Assembly: GCA_029858305.1 (NCBI GenBank)
Contig: JAOUFI010000047.1
Coordinates: 1-17,924 of the forward strand
Reading direction: 5' to 3'
Length of the DNA: 17,924 nt
From: Candidatus Thorarchaeota archaeon
GTDB taxonomy: Archaea; Asgardarchaeota; Thorarchaeia; Thorarchaeales; Thorarchaeaceae
Position 1 is the first letter of the stretch. Each line of letters starts with the position of its first letter. Made by a program: the position numbers and the translations under genes. The notes under the pieces were generated by a model that saw only the letters and a program-made list of their open reading frames with translations, did no database searches and was not told the origin of the DNA. Below, one piece after another: positions 4,019 through 17,250 of this stretch.

Positions 4019-6844
4019 TTACACATTGAAGCTACACATCTTAATCTCTCTTGCTCCAAAAGTGAGCATTATGCTATGAGTTGAGAGTTGGAGTTTCTTG
4101 ATGATAGACCCATCTATTCTCACCTCTGATGCAGTCTTAATACGCTCTGCAAGTTCCAGTTGGACATCAATATCTCTATTTTCAATGTTATAGAGTGTTG
4201 TCAGAACGGAATTCCCGCGAATTCTTAATGAGGATATTCTCACTGCTGGATTCTTAAATTGGATAATAGGATCAAAGAGGCTCTGCGGAGGTTCAGCATG
4301 ATCCAACACAATCGCCAATGGTCGATTTTGAAATATGTCTGATTGCTCTGCACTCATCGCCAGTTGCTCCTTACGAGAGTGAACAAGAAATCCATAATGA
4401 AACTCGTACTCCTTGTTCATTTCTTGAGCGCCTGGTGTCTCCTCTGCTGGCCCTGCATGCATAGGTCTCTCGGGGAAATCTGAACGCGACAACCATCCAA
4501 CACAACGAAGCATTGTCACAGCTATTCGATATCCATCAACGAGCTCTACTTCAGGTAGTCCATTGTTGAGAACTGTAATAGCATCAGTTCCTTTTTCATC
4601 CTCAACTCGTATGAATCCTTTCTGAGGCTGGATGCCTGACGGTTTCTCAGGATAGTCTGCCATTGTTCTCTCTAATTCTTCCGCGTCGGGTATTGATTCT
4701 GCATTTGATGAACGTCTAACTGTCCCAAAATGGGTTGCTGTCAAAGTAGAACTCGATTTGAACGGAAGATCAAAGCATATTCGAAGGCGGTGGTCTTTCG
4801 CAGTATTTGTGAGTTTGGTCGTCACTTCAATCCTTGGAGTATCACGATAGAATCTAAACGATGAAAACACCGATATTTCCGCTTTCCCAATTCGCTTCTC
4901 TCTGGCGGGGTCAAGAGAATCATAGACTTCTAGTATAAGCGTTTGATGGATCTCTGCCAAGATAGGACCTGAGCTTATAACAGACCGCTTGACATCCTTC
5001 ACTCTAACTTTTTCTGGCTCAAGTCTACCAAAACTATATTCATCGCCACGATCGCCGTAGTCCTCGAAGACATGAAGTTTCGGATATTGCACTCCACTTT
5101 CTTTATTGATGAGAGTCAGGGTTCCATCTTTGTTAAATGACACAGAGTAGAACTTGTTTTCGACACGATTCTCATTTGCTTCGAAACGATTTTCGGTTAG
5201 AGATTCTGGCAGCTCCGCCACTATTTTGAGCTTTGAGAAAGTCCATGGTTTTAAGGTGACGACTGCCGCATATACATTCTGAGTAGGACGAGCAGCAACA
5301 AGGTGAATCTTCTTGTATTTCTTGTTGCCCAGTATCTCATTAGCCTCGTGTTTTAGGCTCTCCATATCGAAGTCGCCCACAGGATGCCTGTCTGCAATGA
5401 ACCTTAGTTCTAGTAGACCTGGCTCATCTCCATCAAAATATTCTACGCCATTAATATAGAAGTCCATCAACTTCCTGCCAGGAAGTAATCTCATTCCCAT
5501 TTTAGCAGCTGTCATGCCTAGGGTGGTATCCAAGAAGATGTCCTCTCTGGATTTTAGTTGTTGTGCATCGAATATTCTTCCATCCTCTGTACGGAGCCCC
5601 TTTACAGTTGCACCTCTTGGATATGAGAATTCGAAATAGACTGGTGTCGATGAGCTGCCCCCCGAGTTGAAGACAACAACAGATGATTCGTCACATGGTT
5701 CAGCAATCCTGTGGATACTCTTTTCTGCCTCCTTAAGTGCTCCTTCGCAGATTGACTCAGCCCATGAGAACCGAGCCTTCATCTCTTCATGTGTCTGATC
5801 CACCGAGCAGCCGCATATCGAATCATGAGGTTGATTCTGTAGGAGCCATTTCCATGATGTCTTCAAGAATCCATTTGGATATTCAAATTTCAGAGTGGAT
5901 GACAAGTAGGCCCAGATTGGCTCAACTTTTCGTGTCAGTATGTCCTCTATTTTCTGGTTCCACTGCTTAATCCACATTCGAGCCGAGTAGGTGTCCTGAA
6001 GGAGATGTGCTCTTGCAGGAGATCTAAACTCACCTCCGTAGACAGGACGTTCACCTCCTGATTCTGAAACCTGAGTGTCGAGTTCCTCGATGAACGCCTT
6101 TAGCGTAGATACAGAAATGTCAAGGTCTTTTGTTGCCATTCGTTTTGCATATTCCTTGGCAAATGGCTGTGGAAAGCGATGGTCAGAGCCATTCATGAGA
6201 AGGTAGACTTGTACAGGAGAGAATGGTTCCAGTTCTGCTATCTTCTCATTGACTGACTTGGTGAACTCCTCATAATCTTCTGGAAGCATAGATGCATTGC
6301 CATAGCCATGTGGGAGATAGACTCCCTTGACAGATGTTTTAGAACTCTCATGAGATTTCCAGATAAACGGAACCGATGTGATGCTTGGTGGTACACCTCG
6401 CCAGAGTGCAACAGTTTCAAGAGTGGTTAGGTCACCAAGAAGCTGAGGCATCCCACTTGTGTGCCCAAACTGATCGGGAAGGTAGGCGATATCCATGAGA
6501 GGTATTTTGAATTCTTTCCCAAGATCATGACCAAACTCAAGGTTGCGGATAAGACTCTCACCCCCGACCAGCCACTCATCAGGAAGAAGATACCAAGGTC
6601 CTACTGATACTTTGCCCTGCCTAATTCGTTGCAGTAATTCCTCCTTTTTTTCTGGGCGTATTTCCATGTAGTCCTCCAGAACTATTGTCTGCCCGTCTAG
6701 CATAAACACGTAGTCTTGACCTTCCAATATCTTGAGAAGCTCATCGATTAGTTGGACGAGATTGTATCTAAACCTCTGGAATGGGAGGTACCACTCTCGA
6801 TCCCAATGTGTGTGTGGTACGATGAAAACCCTCTTGGATACCAT
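4019..6844 (-). CDS. Glycoside hydrolase family 38 alpha-mannosidase (MngB/mannosylglycerate hydrolase-like)
   Basis: VPHTHWDREWY Zn-binding motif, LDGQT, GPWY..PDE, catalytic PDQFGH, NGSDH, NQPHDSICGCSVD, and C-terminal KDHRLR and TMLRCVGWLSR. Confidence 0.93.
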   Translation of the reverse strand: MVSKRVFIVPHTHWDREWYLPFQRFRYNLVQLIDELLKILEGQDYVFMLDGQTIVLEDYMEIRPEKKEELLQRIRQGKVSVGPWYLLPDEWLVGGESLIRNLEFGHDLGKEFKIPLMDIAYLPDQFGHTSGMPQLLGDLTTLETVALWRGVPPSITSVPFIWKSHESSKTSVKGVYLPHGYGNASMLPEDYEEFTKSVNEKIAELEPFSPVQVYLLMNGSDHRFPQPFAKEYAKRMATKDLDISVSTLKAFIEELDTQVSESGGERPVYGGEFRSPARAHLLQDTYSARMWIKQWNQKIEDILTRKVEPIWAYLSSTLKFEYPNGFLKTSWKWLLQNQPHDSICGCSVDQTHEEMKARFSWAESICEGALKEAEKSIHRIAEPCDESSVVVFNSGGSSSTPVYFEFSYPRGATVKGLRTEDGRIFDAQQLKSREDIFLDTTLGMTAAKMGMRLLPGRKLMDFYINGVEYFDGDEPGLLELRFIADRHPVGDFDMESLKHEANEILGNKKYKKIHLVAARPTQNVYAAVVTLKPWTFSKLKIVAELPESLTENRFEANENRVENKFYSVSFNKDGTLTLINKESGVQYPKLHVFEDYGDRGDEYSFGRLEPEKVRVKDVKRSVISSGPILAEIHQTLILEVYDSLDPAREKRIGKAEISVFSSFRFYRDTPRIEVTTKLTNTAKDHRLRICFDLPFKSSSTLTATHFGTVRRSSNAESIPDAEELERTMADYPEKPSGIQPQKGFIRVEDEKGTDAITVLNNGLPEVELVDGYRIAVTMLRCVGWLSRSDFPERPMHAGPAEETPGAQEMNKEYEFHYGFLVHSRKEQLAMSAEQSDIFQNRPLAIVLDHAEPPQSLFDPIIQFKNPAVRISSLRIRGNSVLTTLYNIENRDIDVQLELAERIKTASEVRIDGSIIKKLQLSTHSIMLTFGAREIKMCSFNV

Positions 6845-7149
6845 GTCATCACTCAGCTATGATTGAACATTATCGGTGCAAGTGGCAAAACGTTCAGAAA
6901 AGGATTGTGTGAAAGAATGACAATCGTTCACTTCATTAAAGTGTGAATCAATTCGAAGCAAAAAGATTTCATAATCGTGATAAGTAAACCTGAGCTGTTG
7001 CAGATCTATCTCTTCATATCTAATTACAGCGAAAACTCCAATTTACAGCGGACCTACTTAAGAATTGGATAGAATCATTGACTGCCTATTCAGTCGCAAC
7101 AGGATGAGTTGTAAGTCTTCTCATACTGCTTACCTTATTCCCTGCATTC

Positions 7150-8145
7150 TCAGCGAGGTTTGACTGTTCCTCCCCATTCAACAATATCTTTGACAGTGGA
7201 TATAAGATCCCATTTTGGTGTATAACCAATCTCCTCTTTTGCTTTTGATATATCAATCAGATACTTGGTTCCAAATAGTTTCACTCTAAATGCTGTTAAT
7301 AGCGGAGCATTCTTTCGATTGAAAGCTTTGTATAATCCACTCATCATTGAACCAAGACATACAGAAACAGTATATGGAAAATTTCTGTAATTCTTTTCAG
7401 CCCCCAATTCATCAGCTAAGGCATCTAGAAATTCTTTGAATGTGCAGTCAAATGAAGCTACATTGTAAGCATTATCAGCTGCTTTGTCCATATTTTCAGC
7501 GCAAAGGACAAGACAACGTGCGAAATCTTCTCCATGACAATAGCTCTGAGGATTTTCACCTCTCCTAAAGGTTACCATTCTTCCTCCTTTTAGAAATTCG
7601 ATCATCTGTGGTCCAGTATACATGTCTCCTCTCCCAAGAACTGTTGGGGCTCGAACCATAGCCGCCTTCATTCCTTGATCTCTGATATATTGTCTTACAA
7701 GTTTCTCGGATTCTGCTTTGGATTTCTGATAATTGTTCATAGGTTTCCATTCATCATTTTCATTCAGTGGTGTTCTCTTATTTGGGAATCCGTATACTGC
7801 AGTTGAAGATGTGAAAATGAGATTTGGTATTTCCTTCAGTCTAGCTATTTCGAGAATATTTCTGGTTCCTTCCACATTCACTGAAAAGAATCTCTTCTTG
7901 CTTCCCCATTCTGCCATTATTGCAGCATTATGAAATAACCATTCAGTATCATCAGGAATTCCCTGTTTAAGACTCTCCATGTTCGTGACATCACCTGTCA
8001 CAACGCTATAATTCATTCCTTCCAATAGATTAAAACTAGAACTGTTACGAGCTAGAATTGAGACATCATGATCTCGTATATTTAGTTGATTGACAATATG
8101 TGAACCAACGAAACCAGTAGCACCAGTAATAAAGCATCTAACCAT
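7150..8145 (-). CDS. Extended SDR, NAD-dependent epimerase/dehydratase (3-beta-HSD-like)
   Basis: TGATGFVG Rossmann motif, HNAA, NVEGTRN, TSS and YQKSK (YxxxK). Confidence 0.9.
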   Translation of the reverse strand: MVRCFITGATGFVGSHIVNQLNIRDHDVSILARNSSSFNLLEGMNYSVVTGDVTNMESLKQGIPDDTEWLFHNAAIMAEWGSKKRFFSVNVEGTRNILEIARLKEIPNLIFTSSTAVYGFPNKRTPLNENDEWKPMNNYQKSKAESEKLVRQYIRDQGMKAAMVRAPTVLGRGDMYTGPQMIEFLKGGRMVTFRRGENPQSYCHGEDFARCLVLCAENMDKAADNAYNVASFDCTFKEFLDALADELGAEKNYRNFPYTVSVCLGSMMSGLYKAFNRKNAPLLTAFRVKLFGTKYLIDISKAKEEIGYTPKWDLISTVKDIVEWGGTVKPR

Positions 8146-8226
8146 CGCTATTCTCTTTGTTATCTATTTTACTTCTTCTTGAACATTGTTGCTGAACTTT
8201 ATATTTCTACGAACACAATTGCACAT

Positions 8227-8565
8227 ATGTCAGAAGGAATTTTAGTAGTTACACTTCCACATCTTCCAGGCTATCGGATTATTCGTGTACTGGGGACAGT
8301 TCATGGACTTACAGTTAGGACGAGAGGTGTGGGGGGAAAGATTTCTGCAGGAATAAGTGGAATTTTTGGTGGCGAAGTACACTCCTATACAGAAGAATGT
8401 GAAAGATCAAAAGCTGAAGCACTAGTAAGATTAAGAGAAAATGCACAACAGATGGGTGCAAACGCAGTCATAGGTGCTGATTTTGAAACTAGTGATATTC
8501 TTGCGGGAACAGCCACGGTCTTTTCAGCATATGGGACTGCAGTTATTGTAGAAGCAGAATATTAG
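8227..8565 (+). CDS. ybjQ: YbjQ/UPF0145 family putative heavy-metal-binding protein
   Basis: VVTLPHLPGYRI..VLGTVHG, GGEVHSY, MGANAVIG and AYGTAV are characteristic of UPF0145. ATG 8227 is preferred over TTG 8179. Confidence 0.9.
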   Translation: MSEGILVVTLPHLPGYRIIRVLGTVHGLTVRTRGVGGKISAGISGIFGGEVHSYTEECERSKAEALVRLRENAQQMGANAVIGADFETSDILAGTATVFSAYGTAVIVEAEY

Positions 8566-8757
8566 TTACTCTTAGGAAGCTCTCATAGGAGCAAGTTTGT
8601 ATGAGTATTAATCCCATCGTTATCATAGTTTTCATAGAGAATGCCACTGATCCTCGCAGAGATAATCTATCGCCTACTTGACACATTTGGATGGAAAAAT
8701 CAAGTACGCTTTATACTATTAGCACTTATTAGAGAGATTAAGTATATTCCAAATGTT

Positions 8758-9030
8758 ATGAAAGTCACTCGGGTCGCTGTTGCAGAGCGTAATTACCTGA
8801 GGGGCATACTCAGGACTTATCTGCTCGGCAAGAAGAATCAGAACTATGTTATTGGTTGTTTCAGAAATGTTCCTATCAAGGTCTTTGATGAGGTTGCCAA
8901 AGAACTTGTGGAATATGCACAGCTACCCAGATTTCAGGAGCTTTATACGATTAGAAAACTCTTGGAGGAGGCTCTAAATAAAAGCGAGTCGAGGACAAAG
9001 TGGAGTCCTTGGGTTATTAGCCAATACTAG
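8758..9030 (+). CDS. Small hypothetical protein (~90 aa)
   Basis: Fills the gap between ybjQ and the phosphoesterase with a natural-looking composition from MKVTRVAVAER. Its stop overlaps the convergent gene's stop (CTAG 9027-9030). No family recognised. The start could be 8641. Confidence 0.6.
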   Translation: MKVTRVAVAERNYLRGILRTYLLGKKNQNYVIGCFRNVPIKVFDEVAKELVEYAQLPRFQELYTIRKLLEEALNKSESRTKWSPWVISQY

Positions 9031-9695
9031 ATTGTCTTTCCCAATTCAATCTCTGTTATTTTTCTTGTAGCTGGGAATGCTACGTTCATAATTCTAGTAG
9101 GACCAATCTGTATCTCGGGATTGGTCGCGTAGTGAATGTGACCATGAACTATCCAATTTGGGGGAGTATTTTCAAGTGCCTCTGAAATCCACCAGATTAA
9201 AGATTCAGGATAGCTATCTGTGGAGAGTGGACTATAGTGCATCAAGAGAACTGTCCAATCACACTTCGTAAGTAATTCAAGGACTTCATCATGCATGGTC
9301 TTTATTCTCTTATCCATGATATCTTGAATCGTACTTTTCTCATTATTCTTTGCAGCATCGAACATAGGTACGCCAAAGATACCCAGACTCTCACTAAGTC
9401 CGTGTATCTCACAGCTATCTCCATCGAGGAATCGTATCCTATCTTTTACGACTTTACGAATACTTTGTTTGTCGGTGCCTTGTTCATCATTTCCAAAACA
9501 AGCAACAATAGAAATTTGTGAACCGAAGCGGTCGTTTATCGCTTCGGCAATCTGCTGGTATTCATGGAATCGACCTGCCTCAATCATGTCACCTGCAAGC
9601 AAGAACACATCTGGCTTCTTTATTCTCTTTAATTCTGTAATGAATTCAATGAGGTATCTTGGACAATGGATATCCGCGACTGCAGCTATTCTCAA
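9027..9695 (-). CDS. Calcineurin-like metallophosphoesterase (Icc-like)
   Basis: Motifs ADIH, LAGD, GNDE (variant of GNHD/E), LMHY and HGHIH. TTG start. Confidence 0.88.
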   Translation of the reverse strand: MRIAAVADIHCPRYLIEFITELKRIKKPDVFLLAGDMIEAGRFHEYQQIAEAINDRFGSQISIVACFGNDEQGTDKQSIRKVVKDRIRFLDGDSCEIHGLSESLGIFGVPMFDAAKNNEKSTIQDIMDKRIKTMHDEVLELLTKCDWTVLLMHYSPLSTDSYPESLIWWISEALENTPPNWIVHGHIHYATNPEIQIGPTRIMNVAFPATRKITEIELGKTI

Positions 9696-9775: not shown

Positions 9776-9813
9776 AAAAAGAGAATGACGTGGAGTCTCA
9801 GCGAGAGGCTCCA
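9776..9813 (-). terminator. Putative terminator (9-bp stem, 5-nt loop, pyrimidine/T tract) after the hgcAB-like operon
   Basis: Stem-loop 9791-9813 followed on the minus strand by CGTCATTCTCTTTTT. Confidence 0.6.
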
Positions 9814-9857
9814 TCAATGACTGTGAACTACTCGATGAGTTCAAAGTCTTCTTTTGC
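9776..9857 (-). repeat. Copy 3 (diverged) of rubredoxin 3' end + terminator, att-like remnant
   Basis: The minus strand reads GCAAAAGAAGACTTTGAACTCATCGAGTAG (AKEDFELIE*), then hairpin TGGAGCCTC-TCGCT-GAGACTCCA and TCATTCTCTTTTT. The 17-bp core 9841-9857 is identical to the other two copies. T-tract-to-core spacing is 65 nt versus 64 nt in the others. Confidence 0.85.
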
Positions 9858-9903
9858 CCATTGGGTTAAAGAAGAGTATTAAATGGAATCAGTGACTGCA
9901 AAC

Positions 9904-10233
9904 TCAACCGCAACAGGATGAACTGCCAGTACAGCAGCTATCTGTCTCGCTATCTGGGCCAATTAACTTGTCCTGTTGTTGCCCTCGTCGTCGAGCTGAC
10001 TCATTCCAAATACATCCGCAGCCAATGTTCAATACAGAGATGGCGTATCCTAGGCAGTTTTGAGCGCATGCGGTACAGTTTGTGCAGTCTTGTGGTCGTG
10101 CTAGTACTGCGGGCCCATGATCTGGAAAATCCCAGACGTTGAAAGGGCAGACCTCAATGCACATTCCACATCGATTACAGTTTGATGGATTATATGAAAT
10201 ATCAAGTTTAGATTTTTCCAATACGAGTGTCAT
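9904..10233 (-). CDS. hgcB: HgcB-like 2[4Fe-4S] ferredoxin with Cys-rich C-terminal tail
   Basis: Two cluster motifs (CNRCGMCIEVCP and CTNCTACAQNC), then AISV..IGCGC (HgcB AI.V..GVGC equivalent) and tail SCCTGSSSCCG (vicinal Cys pairs typical of HgcB). Starts 3 bp after the hgcA-like stop. Confidence 0.78.
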   Translation of the reverse strand: MTLVLEKSKLDISYNPSNCNRCGMCIEVCPFNVWDFPDHGPAVLARPQDCTNCTACAQNCLGYAISVLNIGCGCIWNESARRRGQQQDKLIGPDSETDSCCTGSSSCCG

Positions 10234-10236
10234 GTT

Positions 10237-11991
10237 CTACCACCATCCTAAGATAATTGCCAAGAGATTGAAGGTTATTATCAGAGCACCACTAACTTTC
10301 AGCATCGTCACCATATATGGATATTCTCTTCTTATCACCTTTGGATCACTGACAGACGTCATTCCTGACCAGTCCATTGTCAGTGAGGTCGCCATAGCAA
10401 ACTGAAGTATCATCCATGTAACAATGACCGTCCAGTGAGATTGAAGTCCATACATTATTAGTGCCGCGAAAGGAAGAGTTCCTAAACCAAGTGCAACACC
10501 TCTCCTCCAGAAGGAGTTCCCTTTTGCGGGCAATACAGGGAAGAATACTCCCAATATGAAGGCGTTTCCAAACAGCGCTATGTTAAACTCCGCTATGAGA
10601 ATAATGATATTGAGTACTGCTGAAAGAATCTCTTGGTAAAAGACTGGGAGAATAACAAGGAGTCCTAACCCACCAAAGAGTGATATTGCCAGGATTGCCA
10701 GTATTGGCTTTGCAAGGATTGCTGCATACAAGAATGGAATATGCGCAACTGTTTGCTCCATTCTCTCACGCAAATTAAAAGTGACAATTGCCATCTTTCT
10801 AGGTTTGGGTCGGGGTTTTCCAAGGTTCAACCATTTACCTAAATCATGAATTCTAACAGGGCCATAACGGGCTCTGAATCCTGTACGTTCACGTATCTCA
10901 GTTGGATTCATTCCAGCTGCGGCAAGCTGTGGCAATAGAATCTCTCTGTGAGTAACAAACTCAGACAATCTTGTTATCCTGATCATCTGAATCACATCTT
11001 CTGTTTTGAAGTGAATTCCCCGGGCCGCACACCAGACATTAATTCCAGCTGTGTCGCACACAAGCACCCATGCATCCAAATTGTCTTTGGATAGAGCTCT
11101 CATGACAGTATAATACGTCAGCTCATAGTTTGCAGTAACAATTACAGGGCTATCTTGATTTGGATTCCCGGCTCTGTACAATCCCGGATTGATGGGTATC
11201 CCTCTCCATCCTCCAGTAACGTGATTGTACCAAATCCTGGCTCGTGCTTTTATTCCATGGTAAACCAGTTTTCTATTCTGATACTGATTGGATATGACTT
11301 CACTACCCCTCTTTCCAATTATGAGCGAGATTTCATGACCATACTGTTCTACTGTATCGATTTCTAGACCCATCTCTTTTGCTAGGGATGGAAGGTCTTC
11401 AATAGGATACGGCAGCCGCTTCTTGGCCTCCTTCTCTGCCAGGGAGCGGTTTTTCCAAAACTGATTCAGCTGTGACTTATCCTGAGGAATGACTTCAGAG
11501 GCAATCGCGAATGTACCATCATCTTTCAAAAGACTCTGTACAATATGCATGAAAAGATGCCTTTGATGTGGCTTCAGCTCTGATAAGAGAAAGGTGCTCA
11601 CAATAAGGTCGTATTCTCCCTTTGGCAGTGCTTTTGGATCAAAATCAGCCTTTCTTCGCGCCTCTGCGGTTTCAGAGTCAGTGTATTCCTCCAGTTGCAG
11701 AATATTCTCGGAGATGAAATTCGGGGGAGTTTCCAAAAGAGAAGCTCTTTTTCTCGCAATCGATATCATTTGATCGTTCGCATCAATCCCAACAACTTGA
11801 GCTCCTTTCCTTGATGCCTCGATTGCAAGAAGGCCGGGGCCACACCCAAGGTCAAGAACGCTCATTCCGGGTTTTACTAAGTCCAGAATCCTGCTTCTAA
11901 TCCTGCTGGCTCGCCCTTCAAGTACTTCATCAAACTCGTTGTCGTAACTCTCAGGAGTCTTCTCCAATGCAGCCATGAATGCAACAGCCAT
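10237..11991 (-). CDS. hgcA: Fusion: N-terminal class I SAM methyltransferase + HgcA-like (CdhD/CFeSP-type) corrinoid domain + C-terminal transmembrane domain
   Basis: Methyltransferase motif I VLDLGCGPG, VGID and YDLIVS. HgcA-like blocks PGLY..G.P...SPVIVTANY.LT, WVLVCDTAGINVWCAARG (11017-11040, Cys321), LLPQLAAAG, TGF...YGPVR..DL and VTF...ER. About 5 TM helices follow, ending in MDWSGMTSVS. Symbol means hgcA-like; activity is unproven. Confidence 0.8.
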   Translation of the reverse strand: MAVAFMAALEKTPESYDNEFDEVLEGRASRIRSRILDLVKPGMSVLDLGCGPGLLAIEASRKGAQVVGIDANDQMISIARKRASLLETPPNFISENILQLEEYTDSETAEARRKADFDPKALPKGEYDLIVSTFLLSELKPHQRHLFMHIVQSLLKDDGTFAIASEVIPQDKSQLNQFWKNRSLAEKEAKKRLPYPIEDLPSLAKEMGLEIDTVEQYGHEISLIIGKRGSEVISNQYQNRKLVYHGIKARARIWYNHVTGGWRGIPINPGLYRAGNPNQDSPVIVTANYELTYYTVMRALSKDNLDAWVLVCDTAGINVWCAARGIHFKTEDVIQMIRITRLSEFVTHREILLPQLAAAGMNPTEIRERTGFRARYGPVRIHDLGKWLNLGKPRPKPRKMAIVTFNLRERMEQTVAHIPFLYAAILAKPILAILAISLFGGLGLLVILPVFYQEILSAVLNIIILIAEFNIALFGNAFILGVFFPVLPAKGNSFWRRGVALGLGTLPFAALIMYGLQSHWTVIVTWMILQFAMATSLTMDWSGMTSVSDPKVIRREYPYMVTMLKVSGALIITFNLLAIILGWW

Positions 11992-11996
11992 AATAG

Positions 11997-12386
11997 TTAC
12001 TCTCCAAGAAAATCAATCAATTGAAGCATGGATTCTCTCTTGTTGTCATCGAGACCGTAGTATGTCCAACGGCCACGCCTTTCGCTCTTGAGCCATCCGG
12101 CCTCATGCATTTTTCTAAGATGATGCGACATAAGTGGTTGCCTTGGTTCATTCAAAGCATATTGAAACTCGCATACACAAGCATCCTCAATTTTGAGAAG
12201 CAACATAACAATGCCAGTTCTCAAAGTGGCTGTGAAGATTTCCGGACTCACTGATGAGAAGGCCTGTCTGAATCCCTCGATTGTTGCTCTTCTTTTGTCA
12301 TAAGGTTCACAGTATGGCGCTTTATCCGGAACTGTTTTACAATATTTTTCGAGGTTCTCAATTCGTTCAATATGCTCTTTATGCAT
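11997..12386 (-). CDS. arsR: ArsR/SmtB-family metalloregulator with CVC motif
   Basis: ACVCEF (alpha3 metal-binding motif), QPLMSHHLRKMHEAGW helix-turn-helix, ERRGRWTYY wing, and extra N-terminal Cys16 and Cys26. Stop lies 5 bp before the fusion gene start. Confidence 0.9.
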   Translation of the reverse strand: MHKEHIERIENLEKYCKTVPDKAPYCEPYDKRRATIEGFRQAFSSVSPEIFTATLRTGIVMLLLKIEDACVCEFQYALNEPRQPLMSHHLRKMHEAGWLKSERRGRWTYYGLDDNKRESMLQLIDFLGE

Positions 12387-12395
12387 GTAGTTTGT

Positions 12396-12425
12396 ATCAA
12401 TCTAGTTTATATAAATCTGATGAAT
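12396..12425 (-). promoter_or_regulatory. TATA box of leaderless arsR transcript overlapped by putative ArsR operator
   Basis: Palindromic TTTATATAAA at 12406-12415, about 25 nt upstream of the arsR ATG, with no Shine-Dalgarno. It sits within two tandem imperfect 15-mers, ATTCATCAGATTTAT and ATAAACTAGATTGAT (10/15 identical). Confidence 0.55.
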
Positions 12426-12608
12426 ATAGTAAGAGTCGTGTTTGAGATGAAGTACTACAACAGGTATTCCGGTATCGATAGAAACATGGAGAGATGAAAA
12501 TCTACCGTATGATTATCTTAACTACAGAATAAACTCAAATTTATCGATCCGGATTAGAGCTGGATCAAGGCGGACTCTACTGTAATCTACTCGATTGCCA
12601 TACCGAGT

Positions 12609-12694
12609 AAAAAGAGAATGAACAGGAGCCCCGAACCGAGACTCCTATTGACCTTCGATGGTCTAAATGGGCTCAAAGTCTTCTTTTGCTGCTC
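12609..12694 (-). repeat. Copy 2 of rubredoxin 3' end + terminator (86 bp, 79/86 identical to 14476-14561)
   Basis: Ungapped alignment shows 7 mismatches, 4 of them in the hairpin loop, and the last 37 bp are identical. Encodes (G)AAKEDFEPI*. The repeat begins at the G of the LRR gene's TAG stop. Confidence 0.95.
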
Positions 12695-14391
12695 TAGTCC
12701 TTTATCTTCCACCATGGAATATTCCTATTTTGAACTATCCACCATATGGTTTGTTTCAGCTTGTCACTCATCCTCACGTCTGAAGTTGAGGTTTTACCAG
12801 TTCTTAATTTGAATCCTAACTCTGAGAGAGTCTTTTTGACTAGTTTTAAGTCTTCATGGTTGGCAGTCGGGGGTATTCCAAGAGTGGTTAAGATGTTATA
12901 GCCATAGGCAGTTAGATACAGCTCTCTCAGGTCAACTTCCGTTTTACTCGCTCCAACAATTACCTGTCGCATTTCCTTCTCTCGAAGCTCGACAATCTGA
13001 TGCATTCTTTTTGCAATCTCACTATGTTGACCGCTAAGCCCCATAATGTTTAGACCCGTGGTTGCTCGCTCCTGATTTATAGCTTCAATGATTTCAATTA
13101 CTATTCTATCTATGACCTGCTCGCGAGCCAATTCGAAAGGAATGTCTTCAGGGATGGAGAGAAAGAGGTCAGCTAAATCACAGTCGATAAAACCGTAGTC
13201 CTTCAATCCCATCGCACACAAGATGTCTTGCTGCACCCGACAGTCCGCCTTAAAGTGTTCTGCAACTCTGTGCAGGAAGGGCCAAGGGTAGGAAGTTGTA
13301 GGTCGTTTATACACGCCCTCTCTTTTCTTAAGCCATGAATATTTCGCATGGATACCCTTGAACCGGGTTGCATCCAGCCAGAGCCTTCGCAACTTTGTAC
13401 AAAGAGCGAGGGGAGTCAGATCAATAGATTTGAGCTGATTGCCAGATAGCCCACATGATTGCAGGTTGGAGCAGGTTGCGAGAGGTGTCAGGTCGATGCT
13501 CTGTAGCTGGTTATTATCCAGAGGAAGTGCTTGCAGGTTGGCGCAGAATGCGAGAGGCGTTAGGTCGATGCTCTGTAGCTGGTTATCGAACAGATCGAGT
13601 TCCTGTAGGTTGATGCAAGCAGCAAGAGGTGCAAGGTCGATGGACTGAAGCTGGTTCTCTCTTAGTTGTAGTATGCGCAGGTTTGTACATTCCCTGAGTG
13701 GTGCCAGATCGATGGACTGGAGCTGGTTCGTTCTTAGTCCTAGTGTTTGCAAGTTAGTACATTGGCTGAGTGGTGCCAAGTCGATGGACCGGATATAGTT
13801 GTGAAAAAGACTGAGTTCTTGGAGTTCCGTACATGTGGCGAGAGGTCTGAGATCGATGCTCTGGAGCTCATTTTCTCCTAGCTCGATTTTTCGCAGGTCG
13901 ATACAGGTAGCAAGGCTGCCTAGATTGATGGACTGAAGTTTGTTATGATACAGATGGAGTTTTTGTAGGTATGTGCAGTTAGCAATACTGGTCAGATTGA
14001 TAGACTGAAATTGGTTCCCACTCAGATTAAGCTCTAGCAGATAGGAACAAGCGGCAAGGGGTGTTAAATCGATGGACTGGAGCTTAGCTTCCAGAAAAAG
14101 ATACTCCAGCTTGCTACAAGAGCTGAGAGGTTTTAGATCTATTGTCTGAAGATTGTTACGAGTAAGTGCAAGCCATCTTAGGCTGGTGCAAGTTGCAAGA
14201 GGCGTCAAGTCGATAGTCTGGAGTTCGTTATCAGTCAGCTTTAGTGTTTGGAGGCTGGTGCAGGCAGTAAGAGGAAATAAGTCGACATTTGCTATTTTCC
14301 GGTAGGAGAGGTTAATCTCGACGGCATCATCTGCAAACTCAGCCCGTTCCTCCACGCCATTCTCTGTCGTATATCTCAGTGCAATCGTCAT
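12694..14391 (-). CDS. Leucine-rich repeat protein (24-aa Cys-containing LRRs) with unknown C-terminal domain
   Basis: About 13 repeats of LxxLxLxxNQLQSIDLxPLAxCxx followed by a ~220-aa non-repetitive C-terminus. No signal peptide or TM segment seen. Confidence 0.92.
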   Translation of the reverse strand: MTIALRYTTENGVEERAEFADDAVEINLSYRKIANVDLFPLTACTSLQTLKLTDNELQTIDLTPLATCTSLRWLALTRNNLQTIDLKPLSSCSKLEYLFLEAKLQSIDLTPLAACSYLLELNLSGNQFQSINLTSIANCTYLQKLHLYHNKLQSINLGSLATCIDLRKIELGENELQSIDLRPLATCTELQELSLFHNYIRSIDLAPLSQCTNLQTLGLRTNQLQSIDLAPLRECTNLRILQLRENQLQSIDLAPLAACINLQELDLFDNQLQSIDLTPLAFCANLQALPLDNNQLQSIDLTPLATCSNLQSCGLSGNQLKSIDLTPLALCTKLRRLWLDATRFKGIHAKYSWLKKREGVYKRPTTSYPWPFLHRVAEHFKADCRVQQDILCAMGLKDYGFIDCDLADLFLSIPEDIPFELAREQVIDRIVIEIIEAINQERATTGLNIMGLSGQHSEIAKRMHQIVELREKEMRQVIVGASKTEVDLRELYLTAYGYNILTTLGIPPTANHEDLKLVKKTLSELGFKLRTGKTSTSDVRMSDKLKQTIWWIVQNRNIPWWKIKD

Positions 14392-14539
14392 ACTACTCGT
14401 ACCTTTGCCTAACTCTGCCAGGATGAATGTTCAAAAAAGGATTGCGTGGGATACTACTAGACTCTCATATAATGCAAAAAGAGAATGAACAGGAGTCCCG
14501 CTATGAGACTCCTATCGACCTTCAATGGTCTAAATGGGC
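12695..14539 (-). mobile_element. Putative integrated module A (LRR gene) bounded by rubredoxin-3' repeats
   Basis: Flanked by 86-bp direct repeats (1867 bp period). No recombinase is encoded, so mobility is inferred. Confidence 0.55.
13366..14325 (-). repeat. Intragenic degenerate 72-bp tandem repeat (LRR units)
   Basis: Recurring GTCGATG(G/C)(A/T)CTG..GCTGGTT blocks at ~72-bp period. One unit is 69 bp and lacks the Asn. Confidence 0.85.
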
Positions 14540-14561
14540 TCAAAGTCTTCTTTTGCTGCTC
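14476..14561 (-). repeat. Copy 1 of rubredoxin 3' end + terminator (belongs to the intact gene)
   Basis: The minus strand reads GAGCAGCAAAAGAAGACTTTGAGCCCATTTAG, then hairpin AGGAGTCTC-ATAGC-GGGACTCCT and GTTCATTCTCTTTTT. Confidence 0.95.
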
Positions 14562-14688
14562 CACACATAGGGCAGACCCAGTCGTCGGGTAAATCATCAA
14601 ACTTGGTGCCTGCAACAATACCACTATCAGGGTCTCCAAGGTCTTCATCATAGATCCATCCACAAACCATGCATTCATACTTTGCCAT
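14530..14688 (-). CDS. rub: Rubredoxin, 52 aa (absent from the ORF track)
   Basis: Manual translation: [52 protein letters not shown]. Canonical CxxCG...WxCPxCG motifs, with a GGAG Shine-Dalgarno upstream. Confidence 0.97.
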
Positions 14689-14820: not shown

Positions 14821-16083
14821 CTACTCGTCCCACAACTCGGACTCTGGCTCATCGGGTTCCTCACTTTCATCGTCAAAGCTTTCCTCTGAGCTTGGAATAT
14901 CCTCAGCGAGAGTTCCATCTTCAACGTCGACAGACGGTTGAGGTATCTCAGACACCTCATCCTCAGGTTCTGCTTCTTCAACAGTTGGGAGTGGTACCTC
15001 CTCAGGAGCGGGGACAGCCTCTGCTTCCTTCCTCGACCTTCTGATGAATAGCAGCTCCATGACTAGCGCAACAAATGGGAATACGAATAACTTGATGACA
15101 TCCGGTATCCGTTCACCTATCAGACCGCCTGATAGTGTTCCAAATAGTGCTTGCACGACTAAATATCCAGAAGCAAAGAAGAAAGTAATTGTAGCCGCTA
15201 GTTCACTAGATATTTTCAATCTCGTGTCCAAATGCGCTCGGCTTGCTAACGTGAGACCAACAGAGCTCATAGCATAGAGAATGAAGAAGATTGACATACC
15301 TGCATCAATTAGGAGTGAGAACAAGTCAATAGAGGCACTTGCAGGCTTGAGGATATTATACAGAAAGTAGGCGGCATATGACGCAATGAATAAGCCAAGC
15401 AAGGCGAGATTATCCGTTGTAACTTTCTTGCGTTCTCTAATCATGATGAATCCATTTAGAAAGTTGAATCCGACCGCCAACGCTGTCCCTAGCCCAGCCG
15501 CTAAGACTAATGCCCAATCCATCTCCAACCAGGGCGTATTAGCAGCATACCAGATATATAGGAAGATGAATGATCCTATCACAATCACATAGCTGAGGAT
15601 GTGGAGGGTACCAAATACGAAGGCGACCACGCGGGACCTGCTCTCGATTTGGACACTCTCAGCGTATCGCAGTGCCGACCTTGATGACAGATATGCCTGA
15701 AATCCTATCCAGCCTAGGAACGCAATTCCAACCATTATCCAGAATACAAGTCCAGTTAACCATAACATGAGATACACAAAGGCGCTGATGACGATCCAGA
15801 TTATAAAGTAGGCAAAGGATTTTGAGTATGATTCCTCACTCGCAACAAATCGTTGGAGTCCAAAGAGCGATAGAAATGCAGTGATCATGAAGAATGTCGG
15901 AAAAATTCCGCCGATGATGGCAATGAATCCCCCTGCAAATATTGGCAAGAAATTACCTAGTTCTCTAAACAAAAGTGTAACCACAGCAGAGAGAATGAAA
16001 ATAAAGAAAAACCATCTCAATCTCTTTGATTCAAAGAACAGCTTGAGACCATTTACGAAGCGAGTAAGAACCGGAATATCCAA
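14821..16083 (-). CDS. Hypothetical polytopic membrane protein with acidic disordered C-terminal tail
   Basis: About 10 hydrophobic segments and a ~65-aa E/D/P-rich tail. GGAGG Shine-Dalgarno before the TTG start. Family not recognised. Confidence 0.85.
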   Translation of the reverse strand: MDIPVLTRFVNGLKLFFESKRLRWFFFIFILSAVVTLLFRELGNFLPIFAGGFIAIIGGIFPTFFMITAFLSLFGLQRFVASEESYSKSFAYFIIWIVISAFVYLMLWLTGLVFWIMVGIAFLGWIGFQAYLSSRSALRYAESVQIESRSRVVAFVFGTLHILSYVIVIGSFIFLYIWYAANTPWLEMDWALVLAAGLGTALAVGFNFLNGFIMIRERKKVTTDNLALLGLFIASYAAYFLYNILKPASASIDLFSLLIDAGMSIFFILYAMSSVGLTLASRAHLDTRLKISSELAATITFFFASGYLVVQALFGTLSGGLIGERIPDVIKLFVFPFVALVMELLFIRRSRKEAEAVPAPEEVPLPTVEEAEPEDEVSEIPQPSVDVEDGTLAEDIPSSEESFDDESEEPDEPESELWDE

Positions 16084-16125
16084 TTTTTCTACCTCCTAAG
16101 ACGATTATGATGATTAATGCCTTAG

Positions 16126-16593
16126 CTATTTATGTTTGAGCACATGAACTATCTCTTCTTCTAGAGTATCTTTTACGGTCGGTTTCTCGATGAGCGTGCC
16201 AACTTTTTTTCCTTCTGCGTCAAAGAAGACAAACCAGGGTATTGCAGTAGCACCCCACTCGTTGATTTCTGGAGGTGAAGGCGGAACTCTCCATTTGGCA
16301 GCTTTGTTCAGTGGATCTGTCTTGATATCGCCAAACACCATGATATCAAGATCAGTTTTCTCTTCAATATGAAGCATGACCGGCATAGCTCTCTTGCAGT
16401 CACCGCACCAAGCGGCACTGAAAATGACAACCTTCAGTCCCTTCACCAATCTCTTTAGTTCCTTCAAAGCTTCCGCATTAAGACGGTATTCCTTGTATGC
16501 CTCCATTACGATATCTTTGTCTTTCTCGGATAAGGCAGCAATGTATCCTCTTACATTCGTCGACCTTTTCCTGATGTCATTGAAATCTATCAT
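16126..16593 (-). CDS. Thioredoxin-family protein (WCGDC)
   Basis: FSAAWCGDC active site, cis-Pro motif AIPWF and IEKP. ATG 16593 is preferred over 16683. Confidence 0.88.
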   Translation of the reverse strand: MIDFNDIRKRSTNVRGYIAALSEKDKDIVMEAYKEYRLNAEALKELKRLVKGLKVVIFSAAWCGDCKRAMPVMLHIEEKTDLDIMVFGDIKTDPLNKAAKWRVPPSPPEINEWGATAIPWFVFFDAEGKKVGTLIEKPTVKDTLEEEIVHVLKHK

Positions 16594-16716
16594 TAGTCTA
16601 AAAAATGGAAATGGGCATTCTAAAACCCTTCGATTTGTATTCTTCAAAAGCATGAGTAATGCTGATAAGTGACATACGAGCATCTCTCTATAGGGACTAG
16701 CAAACTGGTGGAATAG

Positions 16717-17250
16717 TTGGTAGCAGAGCTTTACAAGGCAATCATTGTGGGAGCGCCTAGTGTCGGGAAATCAAGCCTTGTCAGACGCTACCAGACAAAC
16801 GAGTTCAGAGAGGATCACACCGCTACTGTGGCTGCTGACCTTAGTGCGATTGCATTTGATTTTCCTGAAGGAAAAGTTGTGCTAACAGTCGTTGATGTCG
16901 GCGGTCAAGAGACCTTTGCAGGACTTCGAAACAGATTCTATGAAGGAGCACATCACCTAATCATGGTATATGATATGACCAATAAAGAGACCTTCAAGCG
17001 AATCACTCCTCTTCATGAAGCTCTCACAGACAAGATTTGCATTCAACGTGACAAATTCTTGGGTGGCTCTCTAGTAGCTAATAAGTGCGACTTGAAGAAC
17101 GAAGCAGTGATTACCGAACAAGAAGGTCGTTTACTAGCAGATCTACTTCAGCTTGATTATATTGAGACCTCAGCAAGAACTGGGCATAATGTGCCTGAAA
17201 TGTTCTTACATGCAGCTACGGAGTCTCGACGATTACGCCATAATATCTAA
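16717..17250 (+). CDS. Ras-superfamily (Rab-like) small GTPase
   Basis: G1 GAPSVGKS, G2 T (HTATV), G3 DVGGQE, G4 NKCD and G5 ETSAR, plus RFYEGA and VYDMT. No C-terminal prenylation Cys. Confidence 0.93.
   Translation: MVAELYKAIIVGAPSVGKSSLVRRYQTNEFREDHTATVAADLSAIAFDFPEGKVVLTVVDVGGQETFAGLRNRFYEGAHHLIMVYDMTNKETFKRITPLHEALTDKICIQRDKFLGGSLVANKCDLKNEAVITEQEGRLLADLLQLDYIETSARTGHNVPEMFLHAATESRRLRHNI

Follow-up and report, generated by a model that had tools for sequence, protein, structure and literature searches.

Repeated 3′ Ends at the Rubredoxin Locus

The stretch of DNA analyzed here (the window) is the whole contig JAOUFI010000047.1, 17,924 nt long, of a Candidatus Thorarchaeota metagenome-assembled genome (MAG; GCA_029858305.1, designated G000; 3.04 Mb, 88.9% complete). 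It carries an intact rubredoxin gene followed by gene modules set between copies of the 3′ end of that same gene. A 17-nt core, GCAAAAGAAGACTTTGA, occurs three times without mismatch and always on the minus strand, at 9841-9857, 12673-12689 and 14540-14556, with start-to-start distances of 1867 and 2832/2833 nt; not one of 200 dinucleotide-shuffled sequences reached three matches. Behind every core copy come a stop codon, then a hairpin and a T-rich box. The features that make up the repeat are listed below.

14530-14688, minus strand: intact rubredoxin gene, 52 aa (Pfam PF00301, E 6e-25)
14476-14561, minus strand: repeat copy 1, with the core at 14540-14556, the tail EPI plus stop codon, a hairpin at 14492-14512 and a T-rich box at 14476-14487
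12609-12694, minus strand: repeat copy 2, a displaced rubredoxin 3′ end, 79/86 identical to copy 1
9776-9860, minus strand: repeat copy 3, with the core, the tail ELIE plus stop codon, a hairpin at 9792-9812 and a T-rich box
7074-7121, minus strand: candidate fourth copy of the rubredoxin 3′ end, decayed, immediately behind the stop codon of the epimerase gene

Copies 1 and 2 have an exact stretch of 37 nt in common, and the GC-rich hairpin of copy 1 leads into the box CATTCTCTTTTT. Copy 3 shares the 17-nt core and the CATTCTCTTTTT box with the others, and the changes in its hairpin are paired. Its closest relatives are the displaced copy of genome G003 (83%) and then the intact rubredoxin tail of G005 (79%), and it may have kept a further CCCAATG of rubredoxin with a short internal deletion. 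Copy 2 starts on the last base of the stop codon of a gene for a leucine-rich repeat (LRR) protein, and copy 3 lies 47 nt past the end of hgcB. The stretch at 7074-7121 aligns with copy 3 at a local score of 32, a weak match reached by 6 of 500 dinucleotide shuffles and the best repeat-like match on the contig outside copies 1-3. A fourth, decayed copy probably sits after the epimerase gene.

Rubredoxin is single-copy in the assembly (one tblastn match). The core, with up to one mismatch, and the 160-nt repeat regions are confined to this contig in the whole assembly, and a covariance model of the repeat recovered the same three copies only. An earlier reading of this DNA, made from its letters and open reading frames (the sequence-only reading), had described three identical cores, a similarity that stops sharply just 5′ of them, and the gene order rubredoxin, LRR, arsR-methyltransferase/hgcA-hgcB and metallophosphoesterase. 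All of this was borne out: in copies 2 and 3, similarity to rubredoxin extends no further than 3-8 nt 5′ of the core, and the Pfam names agree with the gene order. The same reading had named a dispersed repeat as a possible objection, which the confinement to one contig of G000 answers.

The Region Downstream of Rubredoxin in Related Genomes

Rubredoxin is full-length in 18/18 loci of the same genus, with one tblastn match per locus. The gene orf420 lies directly upstream of it in 17 of these, the 18th locus reaching a contig end, and a thioredoxin-like gene precedes orf420, giving the block order Trx-orf420-rubredoxin. Gene content downstream of rubredoxin varies from genome to genome. The upstream flank of the window comprises the following.

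14821-16683, minus strand: conserved upstream flank, orf420 (14821-16083) and the thioredoxin-like gene

The orf420 product spans the membrane several times, ends in a long acidic C-terminal tail and has no Pfam match, and relatives of it also stand upstream of rubredoxin at most other Thorarchaeota loci. Being a multi-pass membrane protein, it was discarded as a candidate for a hidden recombinase. Divergent to the thioredoxin-like gene lies a gene for a Ras-family small GTPase (16717-17250, plus strand; Pfam Ras, E 1e-37), a kind of gene typical of Asgard genomes.

The sequence-only reading had proposed comparing the interval downstream of rubredoxin among relatives, and this comparison revealed empty and differently filled sites. 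Arrays were found in six of the 28 genomes of the genus (G000, G003, G017, G020, G023 and G024) and on one metagenome contig (L090); the genomes that bear them occur in both deep clades of the genus in the orf420 tree. A core scan of the oriented loci placed the displaced ends on the same strand as the intact rubredoxin and downstream of it. Three displaced copies are present in G020, three in G023, and one each in G017, L090 and G003, the last at a contig end; the broken contigs of G024 hold one complete copy, one cut by the contig end and one without core. The cargo is different in every array: a tetratricopeptide repeat (TPR) protein and an Old-Yellow-Enzyme-type (OYE) flavin oxidoreductase in G020, a HepT-MNT pair in G023, a secreted protein on the opposite strand in G017 and a four-gene module of 5.5 kb in G024. 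Module sizes range from 0.5 to 5.5 kb; some modules consist of a single gene (LRR, OYE), and others comprise 3-5 genes or include genes that run the opposite way. Nothing close to the G020 cassettes was found in the remaining 27 genomes. The third module of G020 contains a segment of ~160 nt (L028, ~4750-4920) with 77-83% identity to stretches of unrelated contigs in G021, G022, G005 and G002; it gave no Rfam or tRNA match.

Two genomes offer sites with less cargo. In G015, rubredoxin is followed after ~150 nt by a gene for a GH38 alpha-mannosidase with no other gene between, and in G007 there is no LRR gene behind rubredoxin. The repeat of G015 (L025, 356-475, oriented) has a complete hairpin of the GGGGGC type, then the 3′ half of a hairpin of the GGAGYC type and the CATTCTCTTTTT box. 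It looks fused, so that what appears as an "empty" site may have arisen when two copies were joined by deletion of the DNA between them. Linkage of GH38 with rubredoxin or one of its displaced ends was seen only in G000, G003, G015 and G023; the distance is 3.7 kb from rubredoxin in G023 and, in G003, 4.2 kb from the displaced copy. It lies on another contig in G002 and G006, though their rubredoxin contigs run at least 50 kb downstream. As a universal downstream anchor it was consequently discarded. The identity of GH38 to the window protein (76% in G015, 75% in G001, 68% in G003 and 60% in G017) does not follow the orf420 tree, which suggests paralogy or exchange of GH38 too.

Multiple copies of the repeat were seen only at rubredoxin arrays, which contradicts a dispersed intergenic element of the repetitive extragenic palindrome or miniature inverted-repeat kind with a terminator. 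More than one match to the repeat model was obtained in 5/28 genomes of the genus (G000, G003, G020, G023 and G024; a weak second match in G013, E 0.09, was left out of the count), and the type I model gave more than one match in none of 59 genomes of 16 other genera in the class. A scan of metagenomes with the 17-mer returned 117 stretches, two of which are rubredoxin 3′ ends by translation and context (L090 and L160). L090 is the sole Thorarchaeota-type stretch among them and, L160 aside, the rest are chance codings of AKEDF(D/E). A degenerate 20-mer gave as many matches across the genus as its reversed control and was of no use for counting.

A Common 5′ Edge and Replaced Tails

Twelve displaced copies with a visible 5′ edge are available in seven assemblies (two in G000, three each in G020 and G023, and one each in G017, G003, G024 and L090). 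All 12 start 2-10 nt upstream of AAAGAAGAC, and none retains more of rubredoxin. The same point is reached from the intact genes. In the orf420 tree the sister species G015, G017 and G020 fall into one group, with orf420 95% identical between G017 and G020 and rubredoxin nt 1-126 93% identical between G015 and G020. Their sequences are unrelated from ...ATGTGTGG(N)GC onward, inside rubredoxin, so that the breakpoint of the intact sister genes coincides with the edge of the displaced copies.

The tails themselves were compared with the core excluded. In G017 it is the displaced tail, and not the one on the intact gene, that is similar to the intact tails of G002, G015, G021 and G022 (70-71%); behind it the ABC-transporter operon found downstream of rubredoxin in G002 and G022 is still in place. 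All three displaced tails of G020 are similar to the tail on the intact gene of its sister G017 (74-79%); the intact tail of G020 is of another type, 81% identical to that of G005. This pattern is the one expected if incoming DNA brings a new tail from the crossover zone and pushes the old tail downstream. The claim of the sequence-only reading that the intact gene bears a replacement end, with the old end downstream, is supported by G017 and G020 as compared with G015.

Anatomy of the Array in the Window

The distance from rubredoxin to GH38 in the window is 7.7 kb, and it is occupied by the following features in addition to the repeats.

14392-14475, minus strand: LRR gene leader, with the motif AATCCTTTTNTGAAC at 14429-14443
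12694-14391, minus strand: cargo 1, complete LRR protein gene, 565 aa (Pfam LRR_8/LRR_4), stop codon abutting copy 2
12451-12608, unstranded: native-looking DNA behind copy 2, with a convergent-gene remnant at 12451-12531 (plus strand)
9904-12450, minus strand: cargo 2 block, arsR, methyltransferase-HgcA fusion and hgcB (Pfam), left edge at 12449/50
11997-12386, minus strand: arsR, ArsR-family regulator (Pfam)
10237-11991, minus strand: methyltransferase-HgcA fusion, 584 aa, with an N-terminal SAM-methyltransferase domain (Pfam)
9904-10233, minus strand: hgcB, HgcB-like ferredoxin (Pfam)
7150-9695, unstranded: cargo 3, four genes (Pfam), with a lower GC content of 0.37-0.41
9027-9695, minus strand: metallophosphoesterase (Pfam)
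8641-9030, plus strand: orf129, part of cargo 3
8179-8565, plus strand: YbjQ-family gene (Pfam)
7150-8145, minus strand: NAD-dependent epimerase (Pfam)
6887-6966, minus strand: T-tract remnant and GH38 leader at the far end of the array, homologous to the post-terminator spacer of G015
4019-6844, minus strand: GH38 alpha-mannosidase gene, downstream anchor (Pfam)

The LRR gene is a member of a paralogue family and is not truncated at its junction with copy 2, since paralogues align to residues 560-565. Its leader aligns with the rubredoxin-to-GH38 spacer of G015 and with the region downstream of rubredoxin in G004. The motif AATCCTTTTNTGAAC within it occurs twice in the 3.04-Mb genome, both times on this contig, the other occurrence being upstream of GH38. 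No repeat was found alongside the LRR paralogue loci. Tandem units of 72 nt (24 aa) occupy 13409-14285 of the gene.

Behind copy 2, the sequence-only reading had the second module begin at the repeat itself, a boundary that has to be moved. The plus-strand stretch 12451-12531 encodes the C-terminal 27 residues of a convergent gene product, the whole gene (202 aa) being preserved behind rubredoxin in G007 (24/27 identical, tblastn E 3e-12), and 12451-12692 matches G007 DNA at 74%. Because these ~160 nt of native-looking DNA behind copy 2 match G007, the arsR-hgcAB block starts at 12449/50 and not at copy 2. Homologues of the methyltransferase-HgcA and HgcB proteins occur in five relatives with the same fusion architecture and ~57% identity, a value that holds for near (G004) and far relatives alike. 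They lie on contigs other than that of rubredoxin, and no arsR and no repeat were found alongside them. The cap-helix region of HgcA in the window reads NVWCAARG and differs from the canonical motif, N(V/I)WCA(A/G)GK.

Homologues of cargo 3 in relatives are likewise on contigs other than that of rubredoxin. The far end of the array, 6887-6966, aligns with the rubredoxin-GH38 spacer of G015 at a local score of 44, reached by none of 300 shuffles. These comparisons suggest that all 7.7 kb between rubredoxin and the GH38 leader were inserted, in at least three layers. An array confined to three copies, as initially described, is thus too short: it probably continues as far as a decayed fourth copy and stops at the promoter region of GH38. 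The cargo had also been described as co-oriented, which does not hold in view of the opposite-strand genes in G017, G024 and L090 and of orf129 and the YbjQ gene in the window. Rfam and tRNA scans of the window and of three arrays gave no matches.

Polymorphism of the LRR Module in Metagenomes

Population data were taken from Logan assembled contigs of sequencing runs, of which X1 is the probable source run of the window and X4 comes from another study; window parts uncovered in X2, X3 and X4 were not counted as evidence, with the exception of the X4 joint. Contigs of X1 reproduce every junction of the window, and the piece with the LRR gene (12665-14554) has a depth of 7.4 as against 11.1-12.8 for its neighbors. 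One X4 contig (depth 3.5) runs from 12629 straight on to 14497, leaving out exactly 1867 nt; the LRR bins are nearly empty in this run, and rubredoxin and hgcAB are covered. The joint and the coverage together indicate that close strains differ by exactly the LRR module, and the 1867-bp unit proposed from the core spacing is matched to the nucleotide. Insertion, excision and deletion between repeats all fit the contig data.

A contig of X2, from another study, spans hgcB, copy 3 and the metallophosphoesterase. Contigs of X2 and X4 end or turn unlike the window at 12447-12449. The loose X2 contig ends at 12449 and 14475 had no match among the sequences compared; the end at 14475 may belong to any repeat copy. 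Inside the LRR gene, contigs of X1 and X4 show joints that go back within the gene and loose ends, which suggests repeat-number variants or paralogues in the communities.

Proposed Mechanism and Alternative Explanations

The repeats, their common 5′ edge, the differing cargo, the replaced tails, the empty states and the presence or absence of the LRR module in close strains were observed directly. The explanation that we favor, with confidence evenly balanced between its being right and wrong, is the site-specific accretion of integrase-less modules at an attachment site (attB) in rubredoxin codons 43-49, with the enzyme acting in trans. The last ~seven codons of the single rubredoxin gene would act as the attachment site, with a crossover zone of ~10 nt just upstream of AAAGAAGAC (codons 43-45) at which DNA segments of 0.5-5.5 kb would insert. 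Rubredoxin would stay intact because each incoming segment carries its own end, that is, the remaining codons, the stop codon, the hairpin and the T-rich box. The previous end, from the crossover zone on, would be left further downstream as a direct repeat with no coding role. As such events recur, at the gene or at any of the displaced copies, a tandem array would grow, and recombination between copies would take modules out again. Read in this way, the window would consist of the LRR gene then copy 2, the convergent-gene remnant and arsR/hgcAB then copy 3, and the metallophosphoesterase-epimerase group then the decayed copy 4. We infer that the joining is performed by a site-specific recombinase supplied in trans and encoded either by the host or by an unbinned element. 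Such an arrangement would resemble the integrase-less islands stacked at the ends of bacterial tRNA, tmRNA and protein genes. Site-specific recombination is preferred because of the common edge with unrelated cargo, the logic of the replacement ends, the tandem stacking and the polymorphism.

Several findings weigh against site-specific accretion, and most of them are also what a process without any dedicated recombinase would leave. Under this alternative, a recurrent break at the rubredoxin 3′ end would be repaired from a related donor chromosome or an excised circle: invasion would take place within the conserved part of rubredoxin, the donor tail and variable downstream DNA would be copied or carried over and joined to the other end at the break, and later gain and loss would occur by homologous recombination between the 70-90-nt repeats. 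The inserts begin with DNA like the native rubredoxin-downstream region of another lineage and then reach an arbitrary end. Examples are the GH38-leader motif before the LRR gene, the stretch behind the G020 terminator that is common to six genomes (G001, G003, G013, G016, G023 and G024) and the remnant behind copy 2. Such starts fit copying from a donor chromosome as well as they fit a dedicated element. The 5′ edges spread over ~9 nt (-10 to -2 relative to AAAGAAGAC) with no single base in common, a scatter expected from end processing. The hgcAB block starts in a gene remnant at 12449/50, and therefore at least one junction of the array is an ordinary illegitimate one. The fused appearance of the G015 repeat resembles an illegitimate deletion as well. 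Identity between copies 1 and 2 is 92% across exactly 86 nt, as would follow from an insertion of the Campbell type, and the X4 joint could equally be explained by deletion between these 86-bp repeats.

The search for an enzyme also speaks for such break repair. The claim that the modules are integrase-less proved correct, there being no integrase in any of them, and no tyrosine or serine recombinase was found in or near any array or in G000; these searches ran on MAGs that are 71-99% complete, and absence is therefore not proven. PF00589 had no match in G000 and matched 9/28 genomes of the genus, none on array contigs (the 14 reference genomes used as a control, including four archaea, all scored); a XerA-type enzyme common to all these MAGs is thus not apparent. 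PF00239 likewise matched 9/28 genomes, with none in G000, G003, G017 or G020 nor on array contigs. The sequence-only reading had suggested looking for the core on circular contigs or next to recombinases. Pattern scans of metagenome and viral sequences yielded no circular element or one bearing an attP site (three patterns gave no matches each in viral contigs), and the 15 integrase loci fetched had no repeat-like site (best E 2.9). Since no enzyme, attP or circle was found, the mobilization in trans that had been put forward is not supported. Contig C116 of G020 (L209, 2.7 kb) carries three tyrosine-recombinase genes in tandem, with no rubredoxin-type site beside them.

Break repair, however, does not explain why breaks should recur in one and the same 10-nt zone in both deep clades of the genus, and no candidate nuclease was identified. 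Moreover, homologous recombination alone cannot make new cargo-to-core junctions, which are different in each module. We therefore regard it as possible but doubtful. With similar reserve, we put forward that this genus might have a cassette-capture system of a hitherto undescribed kind, in which the coding end and terminator of a housekeeping gene would be both the docking site on the chromosome and the portable attachment site of each cassette, served by an unrecognized recombinase or nuclease family or by no dedicated enzyme at all, and which would carry genes of ecological importance, such as mercury-methylation genes of the hgcAB kind, between species.

Genuine integron cassette arrays, with the repeats as attC sites in clusters that lack an integrase, would also present variable modules separated by structured repeats of 70-100 nt, and cargo such as the HepT-MNT pair is typical of cassettes; archaeal integrons are moreover reported as enriched in Asgard genomes (PMC9668308). 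Yet the pair RYYYAAC...GTTRRRY of the attC consensus was present in 0/12 copies on either strand, and the robust part of the fold is a short apical stem of 7-9 bp, with z-scores of the whole site from -3.0 to +1.0. An attC-like long hairpin, with the core paired to the T-box, appeared only in some minimum-energy folds and at low ensemble frequency, and was rejected. No integron integrase stands beside any array, where the upstream genes are rubredoxin, the membrane protein and the thioredoxin-like gene, and array contigs lack PF00589 matches. The repeats are clearly copied from a coding 3′ end, stop codon included, and the modules reach 5.5 kb, are multigene and use both strands, all of which makes an integron very improbable. 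Relics of tandem rubredoxin duplications whose 5′ parts were later deleted or overwritten would explain why the copies derive from the coding sequence with the stop codon in register, but none of the 12 copies retains more than ~10 nt upstream of the core, the displaced tails match intact tails of other lineages and not the neighboring intact gene, and sister species differ in cargo and copy number; this origin is still harder to credit. The least credible explanation is an artefact of assembly or binning in which strain variants were joined at a shared repeat. The source-run contigs do break exactly at the 37-nt stretch common to copies 1 and 2, and the same short words would arise from an LRR circle together with an empty site. 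Similarly built arrays nevertheless occur in seven assemblies, from different isolates where titled, the X2 contig that spans hgcB, copy 3 and the metallophosphoesterase comes from another study, and copies 1 and 2 differ at 7/86 positions and are therefore not one collapsed repeat.

Comparison with Known Systems

Integrative elements that insert at the 3′ ends of tRNA or protein genes restore their target, and integrase-less forms that can be mobilized in cis arise by accretion. The rubredoxin arrays share with them the replacement end, the displaced old end as a direct repeat, the tandem stacking and the empty sites in relatives. They differ in that no integrase, excisionase or attP was found at rubredoxin, in that modules go down to single genes, and in that the left part of the modules resembles the native rubredoxin-downstream DNA of another lineage. 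Xer-dependent elements (IMEX), such as the CTX phage, are also integrase-less and insert at one site, often in tandem, by borrowing a host enzyme. Unlike theirs, the rubredoxin site is not dif, and tyrosine recombinases were detected in only 9/28 genomes of the genus.

The nearest described case that was found is that of the tandem genomic islands at ssrA in Dehalococcoides. According to PMC3146451, these islands are stacked downstream of a single-copy conserved gene, each bounded by a short 20-bp direct repeat of its 3′ end, and have strain-specific content that includes respiratory or metal-related cargo. They span many kilobases; 16 carry a serine-recombinase integration module, some are without integration genes and are thought to persist by accretion, and accretion of elements is mentioned there. 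The rubredoxin arrays likewise have a single-copy target, tandem stacking and direct repeats of a 3′ end. In contrast to this RNA gene target, they use a protein-coding gene in an archaeon, their repeats carry the stop codon and a terminator, their modules measure 0.5-5.5 kb, and no linked recombinase was seen in the modules or genomes examined. For archaeal integrons and integrase-less attC clusters, PMC9668308 reports enrichment in Asgard archaea, with most arrays lacking an integrase on the contig, and its main text has no mention of rubredoxin or Thorarchaeota. Variable modules between structured repeats of roughly 60-140 nt are common to both systems. The rubredoxin repeats differ in being homologous to the chromosomal insertion site and in lacking the attC box consensus and the long imperfect stem, their modules may be multigene and on either strand, and their anchor is a housekeeping gene and not intI/attI. 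No description of rubredoxin as an attachment site, or of such arrays, was located in the full-text literature as far as available, including PMC3146451, PMC10083202 and PMC11529989. The system is accordingly filed as a tandem site-specific accretion or cassette array at the end of an Asgard protein gene, without a recognizable recombinase.

Biological Significance

Taken as a whole, the proposal of the sequence-only reading survives as an insertion hot spot at the rubredoxin 3′ end for small integrase-less modules, and its details of boundaries and orientation are revised. The locus provides a precise and recurrent site of gene gain and loss in the Asgard archaea. Gene flow in this group attracts wide interest, and very little is known of its mobile elements. 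Wholly different modules are borne by sister species whose neighboring genes are 95% identical, and the locus therefore reports recent gene traffic. Arrays, replacement ends and polymorphism with no known recombinase make it a good place to seek a new enzyme or a recombinase-free mode of exchange. Genetic work on these organisms could in future also use the rubredoxin end as a natural docking site. If the predicted arsR/methyltransferase-hgcA/hgcB module is functional, the capacity for mercury methylation would reside on exchangeable DNA in this lineage.

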